From an uncultured Gammaproteobacteria bacterium (GTDB lineage Bacteria; Pseudomonadota; Gammaproteobacteria; UBA9214): a stretch of 64,000 nucleotides of DNA. The position numbers were made by a program, and so were the translations under genes. This document shows, in pieces, positions 38,926-51,513 of the stretch. The notes beneath the pieces are model-generated. The model had not been told where the DNA came from and did no database searches. It was given only the letters and a program-made list of their open reading frames with translations. The stretch's first letter is position 1; each line of letters starts with the position of its first letter. The stretch covers positions 1 through 64,000 of the forward strand of contig CAVVHS010000002.1 of assembly GCA_963748215.1 (NCBI GenBank), in the 5' to 3' direction.

Positions 38926-39454
38926 CCTGCTTCCTGCTGCGACGCACTACCTGTTTCTGGCTGCGCAATCGCTGGTAGTCGGGGTGGTAGGTCAGGTTCT
39001 TGCTGAGGTAGACGTGACGGTCCTCACTCAGGAAGTCATGCTTGCGGAACAGCTTGATAGCCGGCTTGTTGTCGGCGTCGGTGTCGACGATCATCATGCG
39101 CGCTCCGGCGCGGATAAAGGCCTCGGTGATGCCCTCGATCAGCAGGCTGGCAATGCCGCTGCGTTTCAGTTCCGGATCGACCGCCAGCCAGGTCAGGTAG
39201 CCATAGCTCCAGGCGCTGTTGCGCTTGTCGATGAGTGAGCCCAGCGCAAAGCCCACCAGCCGGTCCTGGTACTCGGCGACGAGGCAGAACTCGCCATCCG
39301 AGTGGAACAGGCCAACGGCCTCGTATTCATCCCAGGTCCGGTACAGGCTGGGCCACTTGTCAGCCGTGAATACGCGCTCACCCAGCGCATAGACGGCCGA
39401 CAGGTCCTCCAGCTCCATTTCGCGCACCTCGACGCCTTTTTGAACGGCACTCAT
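38918..39454 (-). CDS. GNAT family N-acetyltransferase
   Basis: WLAVDPELKRSGIASLL acetyl-CoA motif, N..AIKLF; overlaps the M20 start by 8 bp. Confidence 0.88.
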   Translation of the reverse strand: MSAVQKGVEVREMELEDLSAVYALGERVFTADKWPSLYRTWDEYEAVGLFHSDGEFCLVAEYQDRLVGFALGSLIDKRNSAWSYGYLTWLAVDPELKRSGIASLLIEGITEAFIRAGARMMIVDTDADNKPAIKLFRKHDFLSEDRHVYLSKNLTYHPDYQRLRSQKQVVRRSRKQDD

Positions 39455-39592
39455 CACAGCTTCACCACGGCCTGTATCGACCGGAAAAGTATACCTGCAT
39501 TTATGGTCAATGCGATTCACAAAACGCCGACTGGATTCCCGGGAAACGCCTGGAGTATGCTAGGCTCGTTCCCATTCCCGACCCGCCCCGCC

Positions 39593-41371
39593 ATGCCCAA
39601 CCCCCGCATCCTGCGCCTCCTGCTGCCCATCCTGTCCACTGCGCTGTTCTACGCCCTGTATTACGCGATCAGCGCCATGGGTTTCGATGTCGTCATCGTG
39701 CCCAAGGCCATCCCGCGCGATTACCTGCTGAACCTGGTGCTGGCCTATGCGCTCATTGCATTGTCACGGCGTCTCTGGGTCTTCCTGCTGCTGCAGGGTC
39801 TGCTGATGGCCTTGCTGTACATAGGCAATGCCGTCAAGGTCAGCTTCTTCGGCGGCCCGATCATGCCGGATGATGTATATGCCCTGCGCACGCTGTTGCT
39901 GCTGCTGGAAGGCTGGCAGTTCTATCTTGCTGCGCTGCCGCTGGTCGGCATCGCCAGCCTGCTGATCTTCAATTTCAGCCTGCGTAACTGGGGTTCCTGG
40001 CTGGCACTTGCCGCATTGCTGTTGCTTGGTGTCACGCTGGTATACCAGCCGCGAAACATCATCAAGCCGCTCGATCACTACGTCGGCAACGTGGTCTGGG
40101 ACCAGCGCTCCAACTACCTGCAGCGCGGCGCCATGCTCTACTCGCTGATGGAAGGTGCACGTTACTTCGCCGACCGCGTACCGCCGCCCGACCGCGAGGC
40201 CGTGCGTGCGTCGCTTGCGCGCCTGCGGGCGGGCCTGCCGCCACACCACTTGCCGGCCGGGGAATTCACGCCGCGGAACGTGCATATTATATTGCTCGAG
40301 TCGTTCTGGGACCCGTCGCCGCTGAAAGCCGGCCACTACTCGCGTGACCCGTTGCCGAAGGACTTCCGTGCGCTATGGAAGCAGGCCGGTAACAGTCGCA
40401 TCCTGTCGCCGGTGTTCGGCGGCTATACCGCCAATGCCGAGTTCGAGGCGCTATGCGGCTTCCCGGTACTGCAGGATGCCGTCAAATTCGAGCGCGATCT
40501 CAAGAATGACGCGCCCTGCCTGCCGCGCATCCTGGCACAGCAGGGTTACACCACGATCGCCTCGCACCCCAACGTACCGGTGTTCTGGAACCGCGTGAAC
40601 GCCTATCGCCGGCTCGGCTTCGGGACCTACTGGTCGCTGGACGATTTCGAGAAAGTCGACATGGTGCGCAACTTCATGAGCGACGCCTCGCTCTACCGCC
40701 AGGTGCTGGACAAGATCGAACCCTGGCTCGACAGCGGCAAGCCGCTGCTGAACTACATCGTCACCTACTTTGGTCACTGGGACTATCCGCTGCGCGGCGA
40801 GCGTACTCGCGTCATCGATGATGCATCAGGCGTGCCCGAGGTCGGCAGCTTCGCCAACACGGCGTACTACAAGGCGAAGGAGTTGATGGAATTTCTCAAG
40901 GAACTCACCGGGCACGACCCGGACGCGCTGATTGTCATATTCGGCGATCATCCACCCTACCTCGGCTCGAACTTCTCCGGCTATGCCGAATCCGGTGTGC
41001 TGGCGGACAACCGCAGCAAGTTCACGGCGGAAATGTTCGGCGTCTACAATGCGGCACCGCTGATCGTCATCGACGGCAAACGCGGCGCCCGGAAATTTGG
41101 CACGCTGGCGCTGTATGAGCTGCCGGCCCTGCTGCTGCAACTGCTGCACCTCGACAACGCCGGGCCGATCGGACTGACCGCCCCGGAGACCGGGATGCAT
41201 GTACGCCCGATCCCGGGCCTGCATTACCTGGTCAGCGACACGGGCGACGTCGACGTGTGCAAGGAACCACCCTGGTCGGAGGACTGCAGCCGCAGCGCCG
41301 CCTGGCTAAAGGATGTCGTCACCGTCGGTGACGATTTATTTGTCGGGGGGCAGTTTACGCTCGGTGAATAG
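39593..41371 (+). CDS. LTA synthase / phosphoglycerol transferase (sulfatase-fold) family membrane protein
   Basis: about 5 N-terminal TM helices; LLESF, GGYTANAEFE (catalytic Thr), GHW, FGDHPP. Confidence 0.87.
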   Translation: MPNPRILRLLLPILSTALFYALYYAISAMGFDVVIVPKAIPRDYLLNLVLAYALIALSRRLWVFLLLQGLLMALLYIGNAVKVSFFGGPIMPDDVYALRTLLLLLEGWQFYLAALPLVGIASLLIFNFSLRNWGSWLALAALLLLGVTLVYQPRNIIKPLDHYVGNVVWDQRSNYLQRGAMLYSLMEGARYFADRVPPPDREAVRASLARLRAGLPPHHLPAGEFTPRNVHIILLESFWDPSPLKAGHYSRDPLPKDFRALWKQAGNSRILSPVFGGYTANAEFEALCGFPVLQDAVKFERDLKNDAPCLPRILAQQGYTTIASHPNVPVFWNRVNAYRRLGFGTYWSLDDFEKVDMVRNFMSDASLYRQVLDKIEPWLDSGKPLLNYIVTYFGHWDYPLRGERTRVIDDASGVPEVGSFANTAYYKAKELMEFLKELTGHDPDALIVIFGDHPPYLGSNFSGYAESGVLADNRSKFTAEMFGVYNAAPLIVIDGKRGARKFGTLALYELPALLLQLLHLDNAGPIGLTAPETGMHVRPIPGLHYLVSDTGDVDVCKEPPWSEDCSRSAAWLKDVVTVGDDLFVGGQFTLGE

Positions 41372-41449: not shown

Positions 41450-41767
41450 TCATACGTCCGGCTTGACCATATGCAGACCGGGCCCCGAACGCAGACGTTT
41501 CGCAGCCGCGTATTCCTCGTCCGTCATCTGGCTACCGACGACATTGCGCAGCAGTTCCGCATCCTTGTCACCCTGATCAACTGCCCGTGAAAGCCAGTAA
41601 TGGGCCTGCGCCATGTCTATGGAAACGCCCCGCCCCTCTGCATACACCAGGCCAAGCGCGTACTGCGCATCCACCTCGCCACGTTGTGCCGCTTCCAGAA
41701 TGGCAGGCACCTTGGAGGGATCGTTGCGCAGCAGGACCAGGTCCTTGAGATAGCCGTTATCGCTCAT
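41450..41767 (-). CDS. Sel1-repeat protein
   Basis: AQYALGLVYAEGRGV..D..QAHYWLSRAVDQG. Confidence 0.82.
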   Translation of the reverse strand: MSDNGYLKDLVLLRNDPSKVPAILEAAQRGEVDAQYALGLVYAEGRGVSIDMAQAHYWLSRAVDQGDKDAELLRNVVGSQMTDEEYAAAKRLRSGPGLHMVKPDV

Positions 41768-42077
41768 GACTGGGATTGCCCGGGACGAGAGAGATACGAT
41801 TGTACGGTATGCGGCAGGACGGCGCGAACCCGTTATGGCACGAGTACGCACGGAGTTCCTCGACAACATGAGGTGCCGGCAACACGCGGCATGCGTTATG
41901 GGTCACCTTCCCCTTGATAATTCACTGGAATATTTTGCAGATATTGCGCACCAGCCGAATATCCATCGGCGCAGGCGCTTATGAGCGACACCACCGGACG
42001 GATCCTGTCAGCAGACCTGCATCGGAACGGCACGTGCCGGGAAACCCCTGGCCATATGTAGCGCAACCTGCGCTGAT

Positions 42078-43340
42078 TCAGGTAGCCGCACTCACACCAG
42101 CGACCCGGGCCATCACCTGCCGGTATTCATCACCCAGGCGCAGCAGCGTCACCAGCCACGCCAGGCATACGGCAAGCACCAGCCAGCTCAACTCGCCGGC
42201 GCTGATGCTCCACGGCAGCCACTGTGTCAGCAACAGGATCAGCACCGAGCCCAGCACCTTGAACAGCCGGTAGCCAAACATGTCGATCCAGGCCTTGGCC
42301 TGGAAAATCAACAGCGGATCGATCGGCACATACAACAGTTCCTTGGAGGCACGGTTGATGGAATACGACAGGCCGCGATCGGAGATCTTGAGGAAGGCAC
42401 CGGCCTGCAGAGTGGCATGCGACATGTACCAGAAACTGCCCGCCAGCACGGCCAGCGGCTGGGCGAACATGCCACCGAGCGCACCCAGCCAGCGGTGCAC
42501 CAGCGGCGTGATCAGCAGGTTGATGCCGATGGCGACGCCGCTCAGCAGGCTGAAGAAACCGCCCAGGTAGGCGGTGCGCGCCTCGCGATCGCTGATGGTC
42601 GCTTCCACCACCTTCATGAACTGGAATTCCACCAGCGGTTCGACCATCTGTGCCAACAGCAGTATCAACGCAATCAGGAACAGGTAGCGATGCCTGAGGA
42701 TGTCGCGCCAGTGACCGCTGTTTGCGTCGTTGTGATTGCGTACGCCGGCATGCTCGGTATACAGACCGAGCCGTCCCATCAGGAGAGTCAGCAGCACGAG
42801 CACACCGATGATGCCGGCGGCGACCAGCAGCAGGTCGGTGGTGTCGAGTTGAAATTGCGTGATGAGCACACTCGACAGGCTGCCGCCGGCCACACCGCCC
42901 AGCAGCCCGCCGGTCGCGATCAGCCCGTACCAACGCTTGCCGGCCTGCGTGTCGTAGATGGTATTGGTGAGACTCCAGAACTGCTCAACCAGGATCACAC
43001 TCAGCATGTCGACAAACATGTAAAACATGAACGCCTCAACGAATCCGCCGTTGTTGAGCTGCGGATAGAACGCCAGCAGGCAGACGATGATGATGGCACA
43101 GGTCCCGAGCACAACATTGATGCGTGAATGACGCGCGACGAGTCGGTTATAGAGGCTGATGATCAGGGCCAGCGCGACGGCGGTCGCTATCCACACATAC
43201 GGCAGGTTCGCACTGCCCAGCGAACTGATGAACAGGGAACGGCTCGCCGGCTTGAGGTGATACAGCGCCGTGATAATAAGAAAGAAATTTGTGAACAGGA
43301 GCACACAACGGCCGATATGTTCAGTGCGAAGATATGACAT
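42078..43340 (-). CDS. NTT/TLC family (ATP/ADP translocase-like) nucleotide transporter, stand-alone
   Basis: about 12 TM helices; LKPASRSLF, VEQFWSL, KRWYGLI..GG..G, YSINRASKELLYVP, AKAWID...R..K motifs characteristic of the TLC family. Confidence 0.82.
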   Translation of the reverse strand: MSYLRTEHIGRCVLLFTNFFLIITALYHLKPASRSLFISSLGSANLPYVWIATAVALALIISLYNRLVARHSRINVVLGTCAIIIVCLLAFYPQLNNGGFVEAFMFYMFVDMLSVILVEQFWSLTNTIYDTQAGKRWYGLIATGGLLGGVAGGSLSSVLITQFQLDTTDLLLVAAGIIGVLVLLTLLMGRLGLYTEHAGVRNHNDANSGHWRDILRHRYLFLIALILLLAQMVEPLVEFQFMKVVEATISDREARTAYLGGFFSLLSGVAIGINLLITPLVHRWLGALGGMFAQPLAVLAGSFWYMSHATLQAGAFLKISDRGLSYSINRASKELLYVPIDPLLIFQAKAWIDMFGYRLFKVLGSVLILLLTQWLPWSISAGELSWLVLAVCLAWLVTLLRLGDEYRQVMARVAGVSAAT

Positions 43341-43447
43341 GAGTTGTAATTGAGCAGCGTGAGAAATGAATGAGCAGTAATAAAGCTTTGACTTATATAC
43401 GTTAATCGGTTAGCATCGTTGGAATTTTTTGGGTTCAGGAGGTCGTA

Positions 43448-44365
43448 ATGCTATCGGGACTGTTAAAGGCAATTGGACTCTCTCTGGGAATAATCGTTAC
43501 CCTTCAGACAGCTTCCGCGCAAAGCTCCTTCCCCGTCCTGCGTGAAGCCAAGAATCCGTCTCTACAGGCACAGCTCGAAAACCGTCTAAAACGCCTGAAA
43601 CTTGACGGCGCTGTGCGCAGCGGCGACCTTGCCGTGGCTCTGGTCGATGTCACCGATCCCCAGCATCCACAGCTTGCCCAGGTCAACGGCGACGATATGG
43701 TGTATGCCGCGAGCCTGCCGAAGATCGCCATCCTGCTGGCGGCCTTCGAGCGTGTGCATGAAGGCAAACTGCCGCTCGATGACGAAACGCGCCAGTTGAT
43801 GACGGACATGATCCGCCATTCTTCCAACAGCGCGGCAACGACCCTCATCCAGAAGGTCGGACGCAAGTATATCAACAATGTTTTACGCTCGCCGAAATAT
43901 CGCCTGTACGACCCGGCCCACAACGGCGGCCTGTGGGTAGGCAAGGAGTATGCACAGGGCGTGGCCTATCAGCGTGACCCGCTGCATAACCTGTCGCACG
44001 GTGCCACAGCCATCCAGGTGGCGCGCTTCTATTACCTGCTTGAAACCGGTCAACTGGTAACGCCGGAGCTCTCCAGGGAGATGAAGGCGATTCTGGGGAA
44101 TCCGGGTATCCACCATAAATTCGTGAAAGGACTGGAAGCCAACTTCCCCGATGCACAGATCTACCGCAAGTCCGGCAGCTGGCGCAACTGGCACGCCGAC
44201 AGCGCCATTGTCGAGCACGCGGGCCGCACCTATATCGCCGTTGCGCTGGCGCAAAGCCCGCAGGGCGGCGAATGGCTGAAGAACCTGATCTGCGAACTGG
44301 ATGGCATCATTTTGCAGCAGCCGGTGCGGACCGCCAGTCTGTCAAGAGCCGGTGCAGCCGAGTAG
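43448..44365 (+). CDS. exported serine hydrolase, class A beta-lactamase/PBP fold
   Basis: signal peptide (ASA); SxxK (SLPK), SxN (SSN), KSG. Confidence 0.87.
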   Translation: MLSGLLKAIGLSLGIIVTLQTASAQSSFPVLREAKNPSLQAQLENRLKRLKLDGAVRSGDLAVALVDVTDPQHPQLAQVNGDDMVYAASLPKIAILLAAFERVHEGKLPLDDETRQLMTDMIRHSSNSAATTLIQKVGRKYINNVLRSPKYRLYDPAHNGGLWVGKEYAQGVAYQRDPLHNLSHGATAIQVARFYYLLETGQLVTPELSREMKAILGNPGIHHKFVKGLEANFPDAQIYRKSGSWRNWHADSAIVEHAGRTYIAVALAQSPQGGEWLKNLICELDGIILQQPVRTASLSRAGAAE

Positions 44366-45602
44366 CGAACGTCTGGTGCTCGACCGCCGAGTTTTTCTTC
44401 AGCACATTCGAAGTCAGCGAAACCATGTAGAACATCCGCGGCTCGCCCGCGGGTGATTCCACAATCGCAACCGAGTTCATCAGGTTATCCCGGTTCCCCA
44501 TATATTTCTTGCACACATAGCCTTCCTCCGCCTGGCAGCGGTACAGCGATCCCGACTTGAAATACAGCGCCGCGTCGTTCAGTGCCGGCGACGAGGCATA
44601 GCGTATGCGACGCTGGGTGATATACATCAGGCGCTTGATCTGCAGGCTCGACCAGGCATCGACCAGCCGACCCTGTTCCAGCAGCAGCAGGTAATGCATC
44701 AGCTCGCGCGTGGTGGCAATGCTGTTGGTGCCCGGCACACGGCGCTTGCCTTCTGACGTGAAGAAACTGCCCTGACGCAGGCTCTCAATGTCCAGCCCGT
44801 TGCGTGTCAACGGCGTCAGCAAACTATCGACCAGCAACTCACCGAGCGCCTTGCGCCCGGTGTCACGAAAGAACGCCGCTTCCTGCTCGGCAGACACCGG
44901 GTAGGCGGCGCCAAAGTGGCGCAACAGCAGCAACTGCTTGATCACCATGCTCGCGGCCGCATTGGAACTGGCCGACAGCATCCAGTCCAGGTAGGTCCAC
45001 AGATTTCCGGTATCGCCCGTGCGCAATTCACGGCGCGGCATGCGATTCAGCTCCGGTTTCCAGAACGGCACCTCGTGGTGATCGGTGCGGATGAAGGCAT
45101 CGGCAGTGACCTGCGTGTCCCTGAGCACGCGTATTCGCGCCTCGATGTCATCGGGATATATGTCAGCCAGTGCCTGGAACACCGCCAGTGCCACCATCAG
45201 CTTGCCGACACTGCCGGGATTGCGACGCGTGAGCCCGTTGTGTTCCGCAAAAACGGGATGGTCCGGATCGCTGAGATCCAGCACGCTGACACTGTAGTGC
45301 TTCGCCTCGGCACCGAGCAATGCGACGATCCTGCGTGTCAGGTCGGGATCGGCTTCAGGCAGTCGTAAATCCGCTTGCTGCTGCAGGCGCAGCTGGATCT
45401 GACCGGTATTCAGCAACGCCCCTGGCCGCAAGCGGTTTCCCGCCACCTTGCCTTCACTGGCGAGGCGGTAACCTTCCAGCCGGGCGATCCCCGTCTCGGC
45501 GTAACCGTCGACGGGGTAGGCCCAGGCCTGACCCGTGACGCCAGCCAGCACGGCAGCTGCCATCAGCCAGCGATTGAAACAGTCCCTTGAAATTATAGTC
45601 AT
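44307..45602 (-). CDS. exported serine hydrolase, beta-lactamase/PBP fold with insertions
   Basis: signal peptide (AWA); SxxK (SVGK), SSN, KSG; Cys pair after KSG; start uncertain (45602 or 45617). Confidence 0.83.
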   Translation of the reverse strand: MTIISRDCFNRWLMAAAVLAGVTGQAWAYPVDGYAETGIARLEGYRLASEGKVAGNRLRPGALLNTGQIQLRLQQQADLRLPEADPDLTRRIVALLGAEAKHYSVSVLDLSDPDHPVFAEHNGLTRRNPGSVGKLMVALAVFQALADIYPDDIEARIRVLRDTQVTADAFIRTDHHEVPFWKPELNRMPRRELRTGDTGNLWTYLDWMLSASSNAAASMVIKQLLLLRHFGAAYPVSAEQEAAFFRDTGRKALGELLVDSLLTPLTRNGLDIESLRQGSFFTSEGKRRVPGTNSIATTRELMHYLLLLEQGRLVDAWSSLQIKRLMYITQRRIRYASSPALNDAALYFKSGSLYRCQAEEGYVCKKYMGNRDNLMNSVAIVESPAGEPRMFYMVSLTSNVLKKNSAVEHQTFATRLHRLLTDWRSAPAAAK

Positions 45603-45781
45603 CTGAATTTTACACATCGTTCCTTATCACCTGACATTCTCCCGTGTCGTCATAGCGTGGTACGAAGTGAGCAGGAAATCCACCATCGGCGTGCCCTTGC
45701 ACAGAGAGCAGTCTCGCACCAGGAATTGCCTGGCTGTATTTGCAATGACGAGGTTCATGAACGTCCGGAGCCAACCTGATA

Positions 45782-48763
45782 CTAGTCCGCAACGGGGGGC
45801 AGTGGCGACTGACGCAGGTCAACCACGGCATCCGGTCCACTGTCGCCGCTGCGATCGATGTCAATCAGGTACTGGCTGCGCCGCGCACGCTGGCTTTCAA
45901 CGAAGGGGCGGATCTGGAACAGGGCGAGTTTGCCATCGCGAAATCCGAACTCGATATCCGCCGGCGCCGGCAACGCGCCCTTGCCCTGAGCAACCGGCAT
46001 CGGGAAGCGCCGCTCCACGTCATCCGACAGCCTCCGCAGCTGCTCGATCTCGTCCGGCTCCAGCACCTGCGCCCGACCGCTGGCCGGCACCTTGCGCATG
46101 CCACCGGCAGCTTCGGGTTCGGCACGCAACGGTGCCGTGGCCTGCGCCAGCAATCGTACCTCGCCGGCGGTGCGTCGCACCCGCAGTTCCTCGGCCGCCT
46201 GCCCTTCAACCGCACCGCCAACGCCTTCGCTGACCGCAATCGACAACCACTGGCGATCGCCGTTTTCCACGTCCGCCGTCACCAGCACGCCGGATTTATC
46301 CGAGGCAAAAGTCTTGAGGAGCAGCACCGCCGGGTAAACATGCTCCGGCTGCTCCATGTGCGCCTGGCGCCAGGCGTAGGCACGCTCCGTGAACGGCGAG
46401 GCCCATACCTTTTGAATGGCCTGCACGACGGCATCGAAGCCGACCACGTTGGGAACGGTGAGATTCAGGCCGGCACCGGTGAAACCGGGCAGGTCCTCGA
46501 CATTGGTGTCGCTGCGCACGAAGACACCGACCGTCTCGGCATCACCGAAGGCCTGCTGCATGGCAGCGCGCAGCTGTTCGCGGAACGCCGTTCCCGGCTC
46601 GGCACTGCTGATCCACTGGCGCAACCGTTCCAGAAACTGGCGCGTCTCGGCCTGGCGCTGCGCACCGTCCGGCAACGCGCGTAACCGCGTGTATTGCGCA
46701 CGCAGCCAGTCAAAGGCGGAGGATCCACCCGCCTCGATCGGCTGGTCCAGCAGGGCACGGAACACACCGAACGGTATGACCACGCCGGGATTCACCGCGT
46801 CCGGATAATGATGCAGCAACTCACCGAGATTGGCGGCCTTGGGACCGACGATGCGTCCGGAATCCGTGGCACGGATGGCGTCCAGCAGCAGCGGGGCGGT
46901 ATACGCAAGATCGAGCTTCTGCAGGTCCGGCCGGATCACCACATCGGCATCAAGCGCCTCGCGGCCGAAAATCCGGTCCCAGTGCGGGCCGTCGGTGGAG
47001 ATCTGTACCGTGCCGCGCGGGCTGACCGCAAGCACGATGCGCTCGCCGATGTGCGGCTGGAATTGCTCGACCAGCCGGTCGTCCACCACGACATTCGGGA
47101 TACCGAGATTGCGCGCCAGCAATTGCACGTGCGACAGCGAGCTGCCCTCGCCGCGGGTAAGAATGCCGGCAATCGGCGGCAACTCCGGCGTAGTCGATGG
47201 CAACAGATAGATACCATCCTTGCGAAAGTCCTCACCTTCCCGCGGCGCGGCAAGCAGTACGCCGCGCCGCAGGCCTGGATTGAGTGCGCGCAGTCCGCCG
47301 GCAAGCTTGCGCTCGAACAGGTATTGCCGGGTGCCGACCAGCTGGGCAGCGTCCTGCATCAGGACGTCCAGCACGCGTGTATAGGCAAGCAGCGGACTGC
47401 CACGCAGCCGATCCGGGACGTAGTGCGCCGCCGACGGCGTCAGGTCGAGCCACTGCTCGACCGTTGGTTCGAAATGGAATTCCAGCGCACGCTGCGCCCA
47501 TTGCGGCACGCGTGCCAGGTAGCTCAGCGTACTGTAGTAGTCCTCGGTGCCGGGCATGTCGCTGGCCTCGATGGCACCAAGCCGCTCGTCCAGGAAGCCC
47601 CACTGCCGGTCTGACAGGAACCCGCTGGCCTGCAGCGATACCGCCAGGCTGCGCAGCCACTGCAGGCGCGTGAGACGATCGACAGCGGGCATCTGCTCCA
47701 GCAACTGGTTGGCAGCGGCATAGACTTCCTGCTCCAGGGCAAGATTTGCCTGCAGCAGCCGTAGCTGGTTGGGTGGACTGAAACGATTGGTCTGCGGCAT
47801 CAGCCTGCGCAGCTGTAATGCAGCTTCCGCGGCGCTGCGCAGACGCACCTGCAGGTCCGGTGCGTCACGCAGGCTGGCGATGATTTCATTCAGGATTGGC
47901 GCGATCGGCTTGCTGCCACGTTCGGAGATCAGCGCTTCCAGCTGCAGGACGGCCGTGCGCGGCGCATACAGCGTATCGAGTTCGGCCGCGAGGCGCCGGT
48001 ACTGCCCCGCCAGTTTCGACAGGCCTTGCCTGGCGGCATAATCACGCACCCGCTGCGGATCGCTGGCATCCGGAAGGCCGTGCAGCTTCACGCGTAACGT
48101 CTGGAAATCCGGATCGGCATCGGCGATCTCGATCGCGAGCTGGCGCACGGTGACGGCAGTGGGCGGTTCCGTGCCGACAGGCAGCAGGCGCGCGGCCTCG
48201 CGCAGCAGCAGGTAGCGCGCCGGATCCAGCCAGTCCGGATCCTGCACCATGGCCAGCAGCAACAGGCGGGCCGCGGCGCGCTCGTCCTCGACCTGCAGGG
48301 CACCGCGATAGAAACGGGCCTGGCGGAACACCCAGCCGTCATCGTTCAGGATCAGAAACTGCTCCAGCAGCACCTGGCGCAGCACGTCAAGCTGCGGATA
48401 GGCACCGACGAACTTCAAGGCATTCAGGTCCGTCAGCAGGGTGGCGATCAGATAGCCCTGGTCGCGAATGGCAAGGGTATGCGCATTCCACTCGCCATGC
48501 TGCACACCCCCGCCGTGCTCGACGCAGGCGCCCTCTTTCGGTGGCAAGATACTGCCGTCGAAGCAGAACCAGCGGATGCGCTCGAACGGACCGCGCGAGG
48601 CCGCCTTCATCTGACTGATCCAGCTCCGCATCTGCTGCAGGTCGGGCACGGGCGGAGTGGCGTCGGCCGCGACCGGGAGCGAGGCAAACACACATACTGC
48701 CAGCACCAGTGCCGGCAGCAGACGACGGGGAGACAGATGAGATTGTATGTACAGGATTGGCAT
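45782..48763 (-). CDS. exported PEP-utiliser-family dikinase with glucan-water-dikinase-like domain order
   Basis: signal peptide; phospho-His motif GSSLSHVQLLARNLGIP; C-terminal PPDK_N ATP-grasp GPKAANL, VRSDTNVEDLPGFTGAG, VWAS, DIEF, FQIRP. Confidence 0.85.
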   Translation of the reverse strand: MPILYIQSHLSPRRLLPALVLAVCVFASLPVAADATPPVPDLQQMRSWISQMKAASRGPFERIRWFCFDGSILPPKEGACVEHGGGVQHGEWNAHTLAIRDQGYLIATLLTDLNALKFVGAYPQLDVLRQVLLEQFLILNDDGWVFRQARFYRGALQVEDERAAARLLLLAMVQDPDWLDPARYLLLREAARLLPVGTEPPTAVTVRQLAIEIADADPDFQTLRVKLHGLPDASDPQRVRDYAARQGLSKLAGQYRRLAAELDTLYAPRTAVLQLEALISERGSKPIAPILNEIIASLRDAPDLQVRLRSAAEAALQLRRLMPQTNRFSPPNQLRLLQANLALEQEVYAAANQLLEQMPAVDRLTRLQWLRSLAVSLQASGFLSDRQWGFLDERLGAIEASDMPGTEDYYSTLSYLARVPQWAQRALEFHFEPTVEQWLDLTPSAAHYVPDRLRGSPLLAYTRVLDVLMQDAAQLVGTRQYLFERKLAGGLRALNPGLRRGVLLAAPREGEDFRKDGIYLLPSTTPELPPIAGILTRGEGSSLSHVQLLARNLGIPNVVVDDRLVEQFQPHIGERIVLAVSPRGTVQISTDGPHWDRIFGREALDADVVIRPDLQKLDLAYTAPLLLDAIRATDSGRIVGPKAANLGELLHHYPDAVNPGVVIPFGVFRALLDQPIEAGGSSAFDWLRAQYTRLRALPDGAQRQAETRQFLERLRQWISSAEPGTAFREQLRAAMQQAFGDAETVGVFVRSDTNVEDLPGFTGAGLNLTVPNVVGFDAVVQAIQKVWASPFTERAYAWRQAHMEQPEHVYPAVLLLKTFASDKSGVLVTADVENGDRQWLSIAVSEGVGGAVEGQAAEELRVRRTAGEVRLLAQATAPLRAEPEAAGGMRKVPASGRAQVLEPDEIEQLRRLSDDVERRFPMPVAQGKGALPAPADIEFGFRDGKLALFQIRPFVESQRARRSQYLIDIDRSGDSGPDAVVDLRQSPLPPVAD

Positions 48764-49109
48764 ATTCAGGGGACCGGCCGTTCCGGACAGTACCGGGCAG
48801 GTTCGCGGTCAGACGAAGATAAAACCGGCGTCAGGCGTAATATCGAAACAATGCTGTCGGGTGACTCATAATAAACAACACTTTAGCGGGTCGTGCCGTG
48901 CAGTTGCAACCTCCATACCCGGCGACGGACAGCCAGAGTTACCGAAAGCGACGATCCGACCCGTCACACAAGCGGCAATTCACGGATTTACATGGATAAT
49001 TAAAGCGTAACGCGCGCGGAACGAAAACCCCCTTGGCCCGGGAAGCACCCTGCATGAGATGCGGGTGTGACACAAACCATCTCAACCCGGCCTTGCCTTC
49101 CCGAATGGG

Positions 49110-49898
49110 TCATTTAACCTCTTCGAAGTAGTCATACTCATAATTCACATCGAAACTGCCATCCCCGTCCGAATCATATTCAGCGGAAACCAGTTTTCCC
49201 ATATGAAATCTCTGGCGTTTTTTACGCCGGTCCCGGCCTTCGCCGAGGATTATGACCTCTTCGAGATTGCCGTACCTGAACGTGGCCCTGAGATCCGTAT
49301 CCCCGTCCTGGTTCAGATCCGACGTCTGGAAACCCGCCTGGCCGTCCACATAGGTATAGCGTGTTTCATAGACTCCGTCGAAATCGTCATCGTGCTCGGC
49401 AGTTTTCACCAGGCCGTGGCGATCGTAGTGATAGACAAGATCGGTTTTAGCGTCGTAATTCCTGTCGACTTCCAGCCGGCTCATCCGCTTGTCCCGGTAA
49501 ATCCACTTCTCATCCGGCACCCCGTCGCCGTTTACATCGATACCTTCCTCGGTAACCGGGGTGTTATACGCCCAGAACATTACACCGCCGCCAACCACAA
49601 GGCCGGCGATGAATCCGGCAATACCGCTGGCCGGCTTGCGGGCTGCCGTTGCTGATTCCTGTTCGACCTGGATCGACTCCCAGTCACTGATTATCTGCCG
49701 CGCCCGCGGATAATCCGGCTCGTCGACCATGACCCGTACCAGGTTGATCGCCTGCAGCTCGCCCACACCGCCCGGCAGGTACTCGCCGTCCACCCTGCCG
49801 GTGATGCCTTCCTGCTCCAGCAAATTCAGGATCATGTGCGCGTCCAGCGCGGTCGCGGCCTCGTAAACGCTTTTCACTTGCTGCCCGGCCCGACGCAT
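49110..49898 (-). CDS. DUF2007 domain membrane protein with DxDxDG-like repeats
   Basis: N-terminal DAHMILNLLEQEGI...GELQ...RVMV; TM helix; five D-x-[DN]-x-D-[GA] loops. Confidence 0.75.
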   Translation of the reverse strand: MRRAGQQVKSVYEAATALDAHMILNLLEQEGITGRVDGEYLPGGVGELQAINLVRVMVDEPDYPRARQIISDWESIQVEQESATAARKPASGIAGFIAGLVVGGGVMFWAYNTPVTEEGIDVNGDGVPDEKWIYRDKRMSRLEVDRNYDAKTDLVYHYDRHGLVKTAEHDDDFDGVYETRYTYVDGQAGFQTSDLNQDGDTDLRATFRYGNLEEVIILGEGRDRRKKRQRFHMGKLVSAEYDSDGDGSFDVNYEYDYFEEVK

Positions 49899-49932: not shown

Positions 49933-51513
49933 TCATTCGCCCTTCCAGAACACGTGGTACAGATCATGCCGCCGGTCGCGCAGGTTCTTCACCGTGCCAT
50001 TGTTGCGGGCATCGAGCAGGGTTGCCGGACGCAGGTCGGCTATCGCTACCATTTCCGTGTTGGGTGTCGTGTCAGCGGCAATGCCGTCACGCGCGAACGG
50101 CAGGTCGCATGGGGTCAGGATGCAGCTCTGGGCATACTGGATGTCCATGTTCGCCACGTTCGGCAGGTTGCCGCAGTTGCCTGCCATGACCACGTACACC
50201 TGGTTTTCCACGGCGCGGGACTGGCAGCAGTAACGCACCCGCAGGTAGCTCTGGCGCTCGTCGGTGCAAAACGGCACGAACAGGATCTGCGCGCCCTGGT
50301 CGGTCAGGTGGCGCGCCAGTTCCGGAAACTCCGCATCGTAGCAGATCAGCACACCGATCGGCCCGCAATCGGTCTGGATCACATCCAGCTCGCTGCCGCC
50401 CTCGATGTTCCACCACCAGGCCTCGTTCGGCGTCGGATGGATTTTCGCCTGCGTGTGGATGCTGCCGTCGCGCAGGAACACGTAGCAGATGTTTTCCACC
50501 CGCCCGTTCGGCATATGCGTCGGGTGCGAGCCACCGATGATATTGATGTTGTAGCGCAGGGCGAGGTCGCGCATGGCCTCGGTGAACTGCGGGGTATACC
50601 GGGTCAGCGCGTCGATGGCCTGCACCGGTGTCAGTTGCTGCGATTCCATGGACAGCAGCTGCAAGCTGAAGAGCTCGGGAAAGACCACGAAGTCACCCTT
50701 GTAATCGGCGACCACGTCGACGAAGTAACGCACGATATCGATGAATTCCTCGAACGACTTCACGCGCCGCTGCTTGTACTGCACGGCGCCGATCCGCACG
50801 CAGTCAGGCAAGCGTCCACCATAGGACTTTTCCTGCGTCCCGGCCTCCTCCTGCCGGACCTTCGGATTGCGCCAGGCCATGTGGATGCCGTAGCCGAGCG
50901 ATTGCGTATCCACGTCCAGGTAGTGCGGAATGATGCCGATGACTTCAAAGCCGTTGCGCAACTGGAAGGACAGCACCGGGTCGCGCTGTGATTTGTCCTT
51001 TATCGCATCGATGTAGGCCTCCACTGTGCCGAAACGCTTGATGCGCCGCGCCAGAGTGGGCAGTCGCCCGGCGAACACGATGCCTTTCAGGCCCAGGTCC
51101 TGCGCCAGCCGCTTGCGCGCGTTATACAGGCGCTGCCCGATACGGTAGCCGCGGAAATCCGGGTCGACGCACACCTCCATGCCATACAGCCACTCGCCCG
51201 CAGGGTCGTGGGTGGAGGCATAGCCGTTACCGGTGATCGCACCCCAGGTGTGCGTCTTCATGCACACCTGCTCGCTGACCCGCAGGGTGGCGCAGTAGCC
51301 GACGATCCGCTCGCCGGCCGTCACCACGAACTGGCCGGCGGGAAAGTGGTTGAGCTGGCCGGTCAGCATCGGTTCCGAATGACCGTACATGCCGGTGTCG
51401 CGATAGACGCGCGAGGACAGCGCAGCGATCTGCGGGATGTCCTCCATCACAGCATTGCGCACCTGCAGCTGGAGTTTCTGGTTCGCGAGTGGACTGGCGG
51501 TTTTTTTACTCAT
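49933..51513 (-). CDS. bifunctional GNAT acetyltransferase / carbon-nitrogen hydrolase
   Basis: VCVDPDFRGYRIGQRLY (GNAT); FPE, AKIH, ICYD nitrilase catalytic triad. Confidence 0.9.
   Translation of the reverse strand: MSKKTASPLANQKLQLQVRNAVMEDIPQIAALSSRVYRDTGMYGHSEPMLTGQLNHFPAGQFVVTAGERIVGYCATLRVSEQVCMKTHTWGAITGNGYASTHDPAGEWLYGMEVCVDPDFRGYRIGQRLYNARKRLAQDLGLKGIVFAGRLPTLARRIKRFGTVEAYIDAIKDKSQRDPVLSFQLRNGFEVIGIIPHYLDVDTQSLGYGIHMAWRNPKVRQEEAGTQEKSYGGRLPDCVRIGAVQYKQRRVKSFEEFIDIVRYFVDVVADYKGDFVVFPELFSLQLLSMESQQLTPVQAIDALTRYTPQFTEAMRDLALRYNINIIGGSHPTHMPNGRVENICYVFLRDGSIHTQAKIHPTPNEAWWWNIEGGSELDVIQTDCGPIGVLICYDAEFPELARHLTDQGAQILFVPFCTDERQSYLRVRYCCQSRAVENQVYVVMAGNCGNLPNVANMDIQYAQSCILTPCDLPFARDGIAADTTPNTEMVAIADLRPATLLDARNNGTVKNLRDRRHDLYHVFWKGE

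Follow-up and report, generated by a model that had tools for sequence, protein, structure and literature searches.

A predicted exported histidine-swivel dikinase encoded with a TLC/NTT-family carrier and two serine-enzyme homologs in Gram-negative bacteria

DIK is a predicted exported His-swivel dikinase of 993 amino acids (aa). Its open reading frame (ORF) begins with ATG and occupies positions 45782..48763 on the minus strand of a 64,000-nucleotide stretch of DNA (hereafter, the window) from an uncultured gammaproteobacterium of the UBA9214 lineage (contig CAVVHS010000002.1 of assembly GCA_963748215.1, positions 1 to 64,000). DIK contains the Pfam families PF00391 and PF01326 and belongs to a large conserved family. 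DIK, the serine-enzyme homologs BL436 and BL305 and a TLC-family membrane carrier constitute a conserved four-gene envelope module. Where would an exported enzyme of this type obtain its ATP? In textbook bacterial physiology, the periplasm contains no ATP. The carrier offers the missing supply, which would account for the observation that DIK travels with it. Thus, we propose that DIK is a periplasmic, ATP-dependent His-swivel dikinase that is fed by the TLC carrier and acts with the two predicted exported serine enzymes on an envelope substrate. Judged from the sequences, this proposal has about an even chance of being correct.

Conservation of the four-gene module

The surroundings of DIK were compared across 80 loci, one per species, which span the Gamma-, Beta- and Zetaproteobacteria, Desulfobacterota, Myxococcota, a spirochaete and a Gemmatimonadota bin. 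At 39 of these loci, at least 5 kb of sequence is available on both sides of DIK (long-flank loci). The BL436 gene (window 44307..45617, minus strand) is present in 72 of the 80 loci and in 37 of the 39 long-flank loci. The corresponding numbers are 60 and 35 for BL305 (43448..44365, plus strand) and 50 and 33 for the window-type membrane protein TLC (42078..43340, minus strand). When any member of the TLC membrane-protein cluster is counted, a TLC gene is found near DIK in 60 of the 80 loci and 35 of the 39 long-flank loci. BL436, BL305 and the window-type TLC protein occur all together in 31 of the 39 long-flank loci. Where both genes are present, BL436 follows DIK in the same orientation at 68 of 72 loci. 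A median of 51 nucleotides separates the DIK stop codon from the first BL436 codon in the alignment, and therefore the two genes abut or overlap. BL305 lies on the opposite strand adjacent to BL436 in 40 of 58 loci and is thus usually convergent with it. The gene order of the module and an identity of about 50% are kept across phyla, and the surrounding chromosomal contexts differ. Cultivable bacteria that carry the module include Guyparkeria, Mariprofundus and Agaribacterium. The LtaS-like, GNAT, M20 and DUF2007 genes that also neighbor the module in the window are common only to its closest relative (L008) and were rejected as module parts for this reason. Neither this module nor an exported dikinase or a TLC-linked periplasmic kinase was found described in a literature search, outside which most subscription journals fell.

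At 7 of the 80 loci (including L063:11798-12649 and L078:14599-15465), the module contains or adjoins a gene for a HAD-IIIB acid phosphatase (PF03767, 118.7-135 bits); no such gene was found in the window's own genome. We take the PF03767 HAD-IIIB family to be a periplasmic acid phosphatase type. Such a phosphatase could remove the phosphate again or deal with AMP.

Contigs from a metatranscriptome library of a close relative cover BL305 almost fully (43435-44541) and include small parts of the TLC and DIK genes. Since DNA may be present in RNA libraries, this coverage is a weak hint of expression. Most of DIK, BL436 and TLC is left uncovered by these contigs, which is not evidence of silence.

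Domains, conserved residues and export signal of DIK

DIK consists of an all-alpha N-terminal domain (N-domain), a His domain and a C-terminal ATP-grasp domain. The PEP-utilizers mobile His domain spans residues 520-560 (47084..47206, minus strand) and matches PF00391 with 26.8 bits against a cut-off of 23.1. The PPDK_N ATP-grasp nucleotide-binding domain spans residues 638-962 (45878..46852, minus strand) and matches PF01326 with 117.5 bits against a cut-off of 27. Both families are matched by 20 of 20 DIK relatives, and Pfam scans of DIK and the same number of relatives detected no PEP/pyruvate barrel family. His545 (codon 47129-47131) is the putative catalytic residue of the His domain. Conservation was counted in 239 full-length relatives, whose identity to DIK ranges down to 29%. 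H545 is kept in 238 of them. The ATP-grasp residues K642, R750, E756, D936 and R952 are kept in all 239, and E938 and Q950 are each kept in 238. An earlier note on this DNA, made from the letters alone, had placed the His at about residue 545 in the same codon, had put the His domain ahead of the ATP-grasp domain and had found no pyruvate-binding barrel evident; the codon position, the Pfam boundaries and the lack of a barrel family in the Pfam scans agree with it on each point. With both an ATP-grasp and a His domain recognizable in its sequence, DIK is a member of the PEP-utilising dikinase superfamily, and its predicted catalytic apparatus is intact.

The chains of PEP synthase (PEPS) are the best sequence matches of DIK among solved proteins. 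The ATP-grasp domain aligns to the PEPS entry 8a8e with an E-value of 5.4e-19, and the His domain aligns with the His domains of solved PEPS and rifampin phosphotransferase (RPH). The DIK family comprises 5238 library representatives at E<=0.001 and 435 at E<=1e-30, and the breadth of these matches far exceeds chance. A relative is encoded in 566 of 599 pattern-matching stretches of one-per-species genomes. Where relatives of DIK have public names at all, they are called 'PEP/pyruvate-binding domain-containing protein', 'phosphoenolpyruvate synthase', 'hypothetical protein' and, once, 'rifampicin phosphotransferase'. A distant DIK homolog with 28% identity (L140; genome G340, C1:462155-463492) has no BL or TLC gene within about 9 kb and may form a separate subfamily.

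What is the biological function of the N-domain? The N-domain was modeled with AlphaFold2 (AF2) from 64 sequences as residues 46-505 (47249..48628, minus strand), and the model has a mean pLDDT of 89.7 and a pTM of 0.87. The model begins with a small beta element, on which the Cys pair C67/C80 lies, and continues with 22 helices, in line with the large helical N-terminal region that the earlier note had described. Pfam searches with 64 N-domains found no family that more than 4 of the 64 members match at E<=10, and a sequence comparison of the N-domain with solved structures gave nothing beyond noise at the same threshold. A Foldseek search with the model returned no clear match (best E only 0.31), and the model resembles solved structures only through four-helix bundles. 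Neither a sequence match nor a fold match of the N-domain to the RIF-binding domain was found. A protein atlas search with the N-domain returned only the family of DIK itself. Within this domain, R153, E161 and H228 are kept in 239 of the 239 relatives, Q88 in 238 and R207 in 237. Glu/Arg and Asp/His residues are discussed for the phosphotransfer of GWD1, RPH and BsPPS in the available part of PMC13553574. Because of this analogy, we regard the conserved N-domain residues as a candidate phosphotransfer site, and the N-domain is presumed to be the substrate and phosphotransfer domain of DIK.

The N-terminus of DIK resembles an export signal. Residues 1-35 (48659..48763, minus strand) contain a positive n-region, a hydrophobic core and an Ala-x-Ala site. 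In an alignment of 20 DIK homologs judged by eye, a charged start, a hydrophobic core and a small-x-small site are found in every sequence. A signal-like N-terminus was also assigned to 54 of 63 DIK ORFs by a crude signal test, and a hydrophobic N-terminal core is present in 214 of the 239 relatives. Arg-Arg directly precedes this core in 37 of the 214, and a Tat-like RRx-hydrophobic pattern occurs in 11. Since both features are rare, the signal looks Sec-type rather than Tat. The signal-like segment is followed by the Cys pair, of which C67 is kept in 235 and C80 in 236 of the 239 relatives, and exactly two Cys residues are found beyond residue 40 in 153 of them. The earlier note had read the N-terminus as a Sec or Tat signal followed by a Cys pair. 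The Cys pair and the signal-like character hold, and of the two routes Sec is favored and Tat is not. From the complete ATP site, the signal peptide, the Cys pair and the two exported neighbors, we infer that DIK is a periplasmic protein.

The TLC/NTT carrier and the two serine-enzyme homologs

The carrier gene of the module (42078..43340, minus strand) encodes a multi-pass membrane protein of 420 aa from the TLC/NTT family of nucleotide carriers (PF03219, 54.5 bits against a cut-off of 21). A profile built from 36 family members aligns with the solved 'ADP,ATP carrier protein 1' (9j3n; E 4.9e-34, positions 18-428 of 433) and, end to end, with the solved chloroplast carrier 9j3j (E 4.4e-27). 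The conserved motifs FW..AN and KE..Y.P.D...KA.ID are common to the module carrier and the solved ADP/ATP carriers. Thus, at the level of sequence, the carrier is a true NTT homolog, and an own-genome search identified it as the only TLC-family gene of the window's genome. It shares PF03219, a full-length alignment and these motifs with the ATP:ADP antiporters of Chlamydiae, Rickettsiae and plastids. However, the module carrier is shorter, belongs to a free-living bacterium and is proposed to run outwards. We infer its direction and substrate in the module from sequence.

The co-occurrence of the carrier and the dikinase was assessed in a phyletic sample of 401 genomes of the phylum from 212 genera. 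The dikinase N-domain is found in 28 genomes from 7 genera, and a TLC-type gene is found in 60 genomes. Some TLC match is present in 26 of the 28 dikinase genomes, compared with 34 of the 373 genomes without the dikinase. The dikinase N-domain is present in every one of the 15 genomes whose TLC match reaches at least 400 bits. Some module loci encode a TLC-HEAT fusion of roughly 720 aa or a TLC-STAS fusion, sometimes besides the short carrier (L025:4594-6756, L027:13371-15671, L018:14593-17094 and others), and two TLC-type genes are found in 6 of the 60 TLC-bearing loci. In two dikinase-free gammaproteobacterial loci (L118:7175-8749 and L119:4243-5799), a TLC-like protein adjoins a PF00144 beta-lactamase-family protein of 519-525 aa. 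At about nine other dikinase-free loci, a TLC-like gene adjoins an aldo-keto reductase or short-chain dehydrogenase gene, often with LysR regulators nearby.

A second pairing of a TLC paralog with a kinase gene was observed in Zetaproteobacteria. In genome G009 (L104:3697-7254), the TLC paralog lies directly downstream of a CotH-kinase gene (PF08757, 145.6 bits) whose likely start encodes a signal-like sequence. The adjacency recurs in 19 of 20 zetaproteobacterial loci (L120-L139), and the twentieth has no upstream sequence. By coordinate comparison, it is also found in 23 of the 30 CotH genomes in the 401-genome sample, which represent three genera and two families. The CotH-family kinase resembles DIK in that it uses ATP, starts with a signal-like sequence and is encoded next to a TLC paralog. 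Unlike DIK, it has an unrelated fold and family and is not part of the module. As read from the sequences, the pairing fits the principle of a carrier that feeds an exported ATP-using enzyme. The two ATP-using enzymes are unrelated and both have export signals, and each adjoins a TLC paralog of its own, as the ATP-export proposal predicts. No CotH gene was found in the window's genome, which has one TLC gene and one predicted exported dikinase. The CotH-TLC pair is located near genes for GH113, ManC and an AmiC-type amidase.

BL436, encoded downstream of DIK, is a predicted exported serine enzyme with the class-A beta-lactamase/PBP-A fold (PF13354, 29.1 bits against a cut-off of 22). BL305 is its predicted exported paralog (PF13354, 84.1 bits against the same cut-off), and hhalign gives 97.8% for this remote relationship. 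The BL436 motifs S136xxK139, S217-S-N219 and K354-S-G356 and the Cys pair C361/C369 are invariant in 45 of 45 aligned sequences, as are the BL305 motifs S89xxK92, S125xN127 and K241-S-G243 in 40 of 40. The best sequence matches to solved proteins are very distant (E 0.13 to OXY-1 for BL436 and 0.0064 to PBP-A for BL305). An AF2 model of BL436 has a pLDDT of 92.6, and its Foldseek matches include LRA-5, the DD-peptidase PBP-A and CTX-M, with E-values of about 2e-11 to 1e-10, TM scores by target of 0.70-0.77 and identities of 13-16%. Thus, by sequence and model, BL436 and BL305 have the fold and the SxxK, SxN and K(S/T)G motifs of class-A beta-lactamase/PBP-A proteins, and their enzymatic activity is putative. 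The two proteins share fold and motifs with PBP-A (Tll2115) and LRA-5, which BL436 matches at E-values of about 2e-11 to 5e-11. In contrast to PBP-A and LRA-5, to which identity is low, BL436 contains large insertions, an N-terminal extension and its own Cys pair, and BL436 and BL305 are always linked to a dikinase. Signal-like N-termini were assigned to 44 of 47 BL305 ORFs by the crude signal test and to 46 of 53 BL436 ORFs; the latter count carries little weight because 45 of the 53 were also positive in a control that started from residue 121.

In the window, the convergent 3' ends of BL436 and BL305 overlap by 59 bases (44307-44365). Of the BL436 homologs P0271 and P0272, one carries a sub-threshold peptidoglycan-binding domain (PG_binding_1, 20.9 bits against 23) and the other is fused to the C-terminal half of a dikinase; each is a single case, and the second may reflect a frameshift. 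A longer homolog, P0270, was set aside, as its N-terminus is Arg-rich and probably out of frame.

Mechanism, related enzymes and alternative explanations

We propose a reaction scheme for DIK by analogy with PEP synthase, GWD and rifampin phosphotransferase. ATP would be bound by the C-terminal ATP-grasp domain. The beta-phosphate would be transferred to His545 on the swivelling domain, and AMP and phosphate would be released. The His domain would then swing to the all-alpha N-domain, where R153, E161 and H228 may help to pass the phosphate to the acceptor. The carrier would act as an antiporter that moves cytoplasmic ATP out and takes a spent adenine nucleotide or phosphate in exchange. BL436 and BL305 would act on the dikinase substrate before or after its phosphorylation. 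With low confidence, we suggest that the acceptor is a cell-envelope component such as a peptidoglycan peptide. A cell-wall peptide is weakly indicated by the PBP-like partners and by the single peptidoglycan-binding fusion. More generally, some free-living Gram-negative bacteria may run a periplasmic ATP economy in which NTT/TLC carriers export ATP to exported enzymes, namely DIK and, in Zetaproteobacteria, the CotH kinase. We advance this generalization tentatively, as somewhat short of an even prospect.

DIK works like the plant enzyme GWD in outline. According to the available part of PMC13553574, GWD1 consists of two CBM45 domains, an all-alpha central domain of 20 helices, a His domain and an ATP domain, and its central domain matches solved structures only via four-helix bundles. 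DIK has the same core order of all-alpha, phospho-His and C-terminal ATP-grasp domains and the same kind of orphan helical domain. Its chemistry is presumed to be the same as that of GWD1 and PWD, with ATP converted to AMP, phosphate and a phospho-acceptor via phospho-His. However, DIK lacks CBM45 and CBM20, and no carbohydrate-binding family was detected at E<=10 in 64 N-domains or 20 full DIK proteins. The His domains of 20 of 20 proteins match PF00391, and none of the 20 matches the GWD1_pHisD family (PF22973) at E<=10. A search of the window's own genome with PF22973 gave nothing at the DIK locus and two weak matches elsewhere (E 0.198). DIK also differs from GWD1 and PWD in its predicted signal peptide and Cys pair and in its partners, which are PBP-fold enzymes and a nucleotide carrier. 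The GWD1 central domain entries 9HA9 and 9QVI, which possibly lie outside the structure libraries, were not among the sequence or fold matches of the N-domain. The earlier note had ascribed a GWD/PWD architecture to DIK and had taken the order of His domain followed by ATP-grasp domain as the order of these enzymes. The shared core order stands, but the CBM domains and the GWD1-type His domain were not found, and the order is not special to GWD: large bacterial clusters of the protein atlas, including one of 1143 members, carry both families. The ATP-grasp domain of DIK scores best against PEPS and RPH models. For all these reasons (no CBM, a PF00391-type His domain, an ATP-grasp domain closest to PEPS and RPH and a domain order common elsewhere), DIK is not filed as a GWD.

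DIK is not an ordinary PEP synthase either. DIK shares the ATP-grasp and mobile His domains with PEPS and PPDK, but it lacks the PEP/pyruvate barrel and its domain order is reversed. Its scores against PEPS models lie far under the cut-offs (105.2 against 883 for NF004881, 103.9 against 598 for NF005057 and 95.5 against 739.75 for TIGR01418), and the window's genome has separate PEPS-like and PPDK-like genes. A quick ATP-grasp tree, which deserves little weight given some wrongly chosen ORFs and long-branch artefacts, split eight PEPS domains and two standalone ATP-grasp ORFs from 15 dikinase domains by a long branch. Rifampin phosphotransferase was likewise rejected, as the RPH model NF041857 matches DIK with 95.9 bits against a cut-off of 999, covers the ATP-grasp domain only and has a different domain order. 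RPH and BsPPS resemble DIK in their three parts, namely an ATP-grasp domain, a helical acceptor-binding domain and a swivelling His domain, and the DIK ATP-grasp domain aligns to 5fbs and 5hv1. In DIK, however, the ATP-grasp domain comes last rather than first, the protein is predicted to be exported and the N-domain is unlike the RIF-binding domain. In the window's own genome, the RPH model matched nothing but PEPS ATP-grasp domains. On contig C7 of the same genome (C7:401128-402116), the ATP-grasp region of an ordinary PEP synthase is present in three pieces, one with an in-frame TGA, which suggests a frameshift or an assembly error.

Could DIK nevertheless be a bacterial counterpart of GWD? 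Exported DIK would then phosphorylate a periplasmic or surface polysaccharide, such as osmoregulated glucans, exopolysaccharide or glycan strands, and make it accessible or charged. Starch turnover involves phosphatases alongside GWD, and a phosphatase joins the module in seven loci. The domain order equals the core of GWD1, and the N-domain, with about 20 helices and matches to four-helix bundles only, recalls the GWD1 central domain as presented in the available part of PMC13553574. The lack of any sugar-binding family and of GWD1_pHisD, together with conserved partners of the peptidase/PBP fold rather than the glycosidase fold, argues against this explanation, and the 80 loci show no recurrent glycoside hydrolase or glycosyltransferase. 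We therefore consider a GWD counterpart unlikely. The polysaccharide or cell-wall dikinase envisaged in the earlier note survives as a His-swivel dikinase, but its glucan side is only partly supported, as no CBM was found and the partners are not glycoside hydrolases. Another possibility is an extracytoplasmic drug-inactivation island: with two beta-lactamases at its side, an RPH-like enzyme would modify an antibiotic or other xenobiotic by phosphorylating it in the periplasm. The match of the RPH model to the ATP-grasp domain, the similarity of the BL436 fold to the class-A beta-lactamases LRA-5 and CTX-M and the patchy distribution of the dikinase (7 of 212 sampled genera) are consistent with such an island. 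The RPH score, however, is far under its cut-off and is limited to the ATP-grasp domain. BL436 and BL305 are very distant from real beta-lactamases, and the closest folds include the DD-peptidase PBP-A and LRA-5, a weak precursor. In addition, the conserved gene order and identity across phyla are unlike those of mobile resistance islands, and no mobile-element genes recur in the loci. A resistance function is thus decidedly improbable.

Two further explanations were weighed. In the first, no ATP would be exported: the TLC carrier would import nucleotides, as in parasites, for salvage or energy harvest, and DIK would run towards ATP from AMP, phosphate and a phosphorylated donor or would use a non-ATP donor. 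The dikinase reaction of PPDK is reversible, and an acid phosphatase of the periplasmic type sometimes accompanies the module. All characterised NTTs are importers, as stated in the available part of PMC5381601. On the other side, every ATP-site residue of DIK is kept, which argues for a nucleotide-bound periplasmic step in either direction. The tight linkage to two PBP-fold enzymes is left unexplained by salvage, and the hosts are free-living autotrophs and heterotrophs with complete genomes. Moreover, we know of no high-energy phosphate donor in the environment or the periplasm. Salvage is, in our judgment, an unlikely explanation. In the second, DIK would be cytoplasmic or membrane-anchored facing inwards, its signal would have been misread, and the carrier and exported enzymes would be its neighbors for another reason. 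The localisation of DIK comes from sequence alone, the signal test is crude and 25 of the 239 relatives have no hydrophobic N-terminal core. Such a location is nonetheless hard to reconcile with the n-region charge, hydrophobic core and small-x-small site of 20 of 20 homologs, with a Cys pair that is kept in 235-236 of 239 relatives and mostly comprises their only two Cys residues, and with the operon-like arrangement with BL436, which itself bears a signal and a conserved Cys pair. We regard an inward-facing DIK as very improbable.

The proposal of a carrier-fed periplasmic dikinase has to be weighed against several observations. The export of DIK, the transport of ATP and the phospho-product all rest on computation here, and the acceptor is a guess. 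Beyond the relatives that lack a hydrophobic core, the crudeness of the signal test is evident from the failed BL436 control. Four of the 39 long-flank loci (L012, L053, L062 and L077) have no nearby TLC-type gene. Because 21 of the 28 dikinase genomes come from one genus, the phyletic counts overstate independence and are inflated by kinship. Two dikinase genomes (G340 and G090), which encode distant homologs with 28% and 33% identity, have no TLC match at all, and 11 dikinase genomes of one genus show only a TLC paralog of roughly 300 bits. In other Pseudomonadota, TLC-like genes adjoin aldo-keto reductases and short-chain dehydrogenases, and therefore family membership alone does not fix the substrate. 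To our knowledge, NTTs do not usually transport AMP, which is the expected product. The importer role of every characterised NTT also counts against export, and the available part of Major et al. 2017 (PMC5381601) describes the NTT role in free-living bacteria as unknown and makes no mention of export or the periplasm.

If the proposal of carrier-fed periplasmic phosphorylation is correct, it would provide a function for the unexplained NTT genes of free-living bacteria, a question left open in 2017 in the available text of PMC5381601. It would also overturn the rule that periplasmic chemistry cannot use ATP, and it would add export to the repertoire of NTT/TLC carriers, whose only known role to date is nucleotide import in parasites and plastids. 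An exported enzyme with an intact ATP site that is tied to an ATP/ADP-type carrier would represent a direct, testable counter-example to an ATP-free periplasm. On the textbook view, envelope processes draw their power from the cytoplasm or from pre-activated substrates. DIK defines a large unnamed family with an acceptor domain of roughly 460 residues that has no clear match to a solved fold. If the acceptor is a cell-wall component, DIK would catalyze a new kind of envelope modification. A relationship of the alpha domain to the GWD1 central domain, if it proves real, would shed light on the bacterial ancestry of starch phosphorylation.

An Rfam search of the region 41500-49300 found no match and no riboswitch, promoter and terminator scans gave nothing above shuffled sequences, and PADLOC returned no defence-system match for any of the four module proteins. 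The window also encodes further proteins around the module. Upstream of DIK, a DUF2007 protein (49110-49898, minus strand) contains a membrane segment and an Asp-rich, repeat-like C-terminal part, and another gene (49933-51513, minus strand) encodes a 526-aa fusion of GNAT acetyltransferase and carbon-nitrogen hydrolase domains. On the other side, the carrier gene is adjoined by a gene (39302-41371, plus strand) for a membrane-anchored sulfatase-family protein of 689 aa that is of the LtaS/phosphoglycerol-transferase type.

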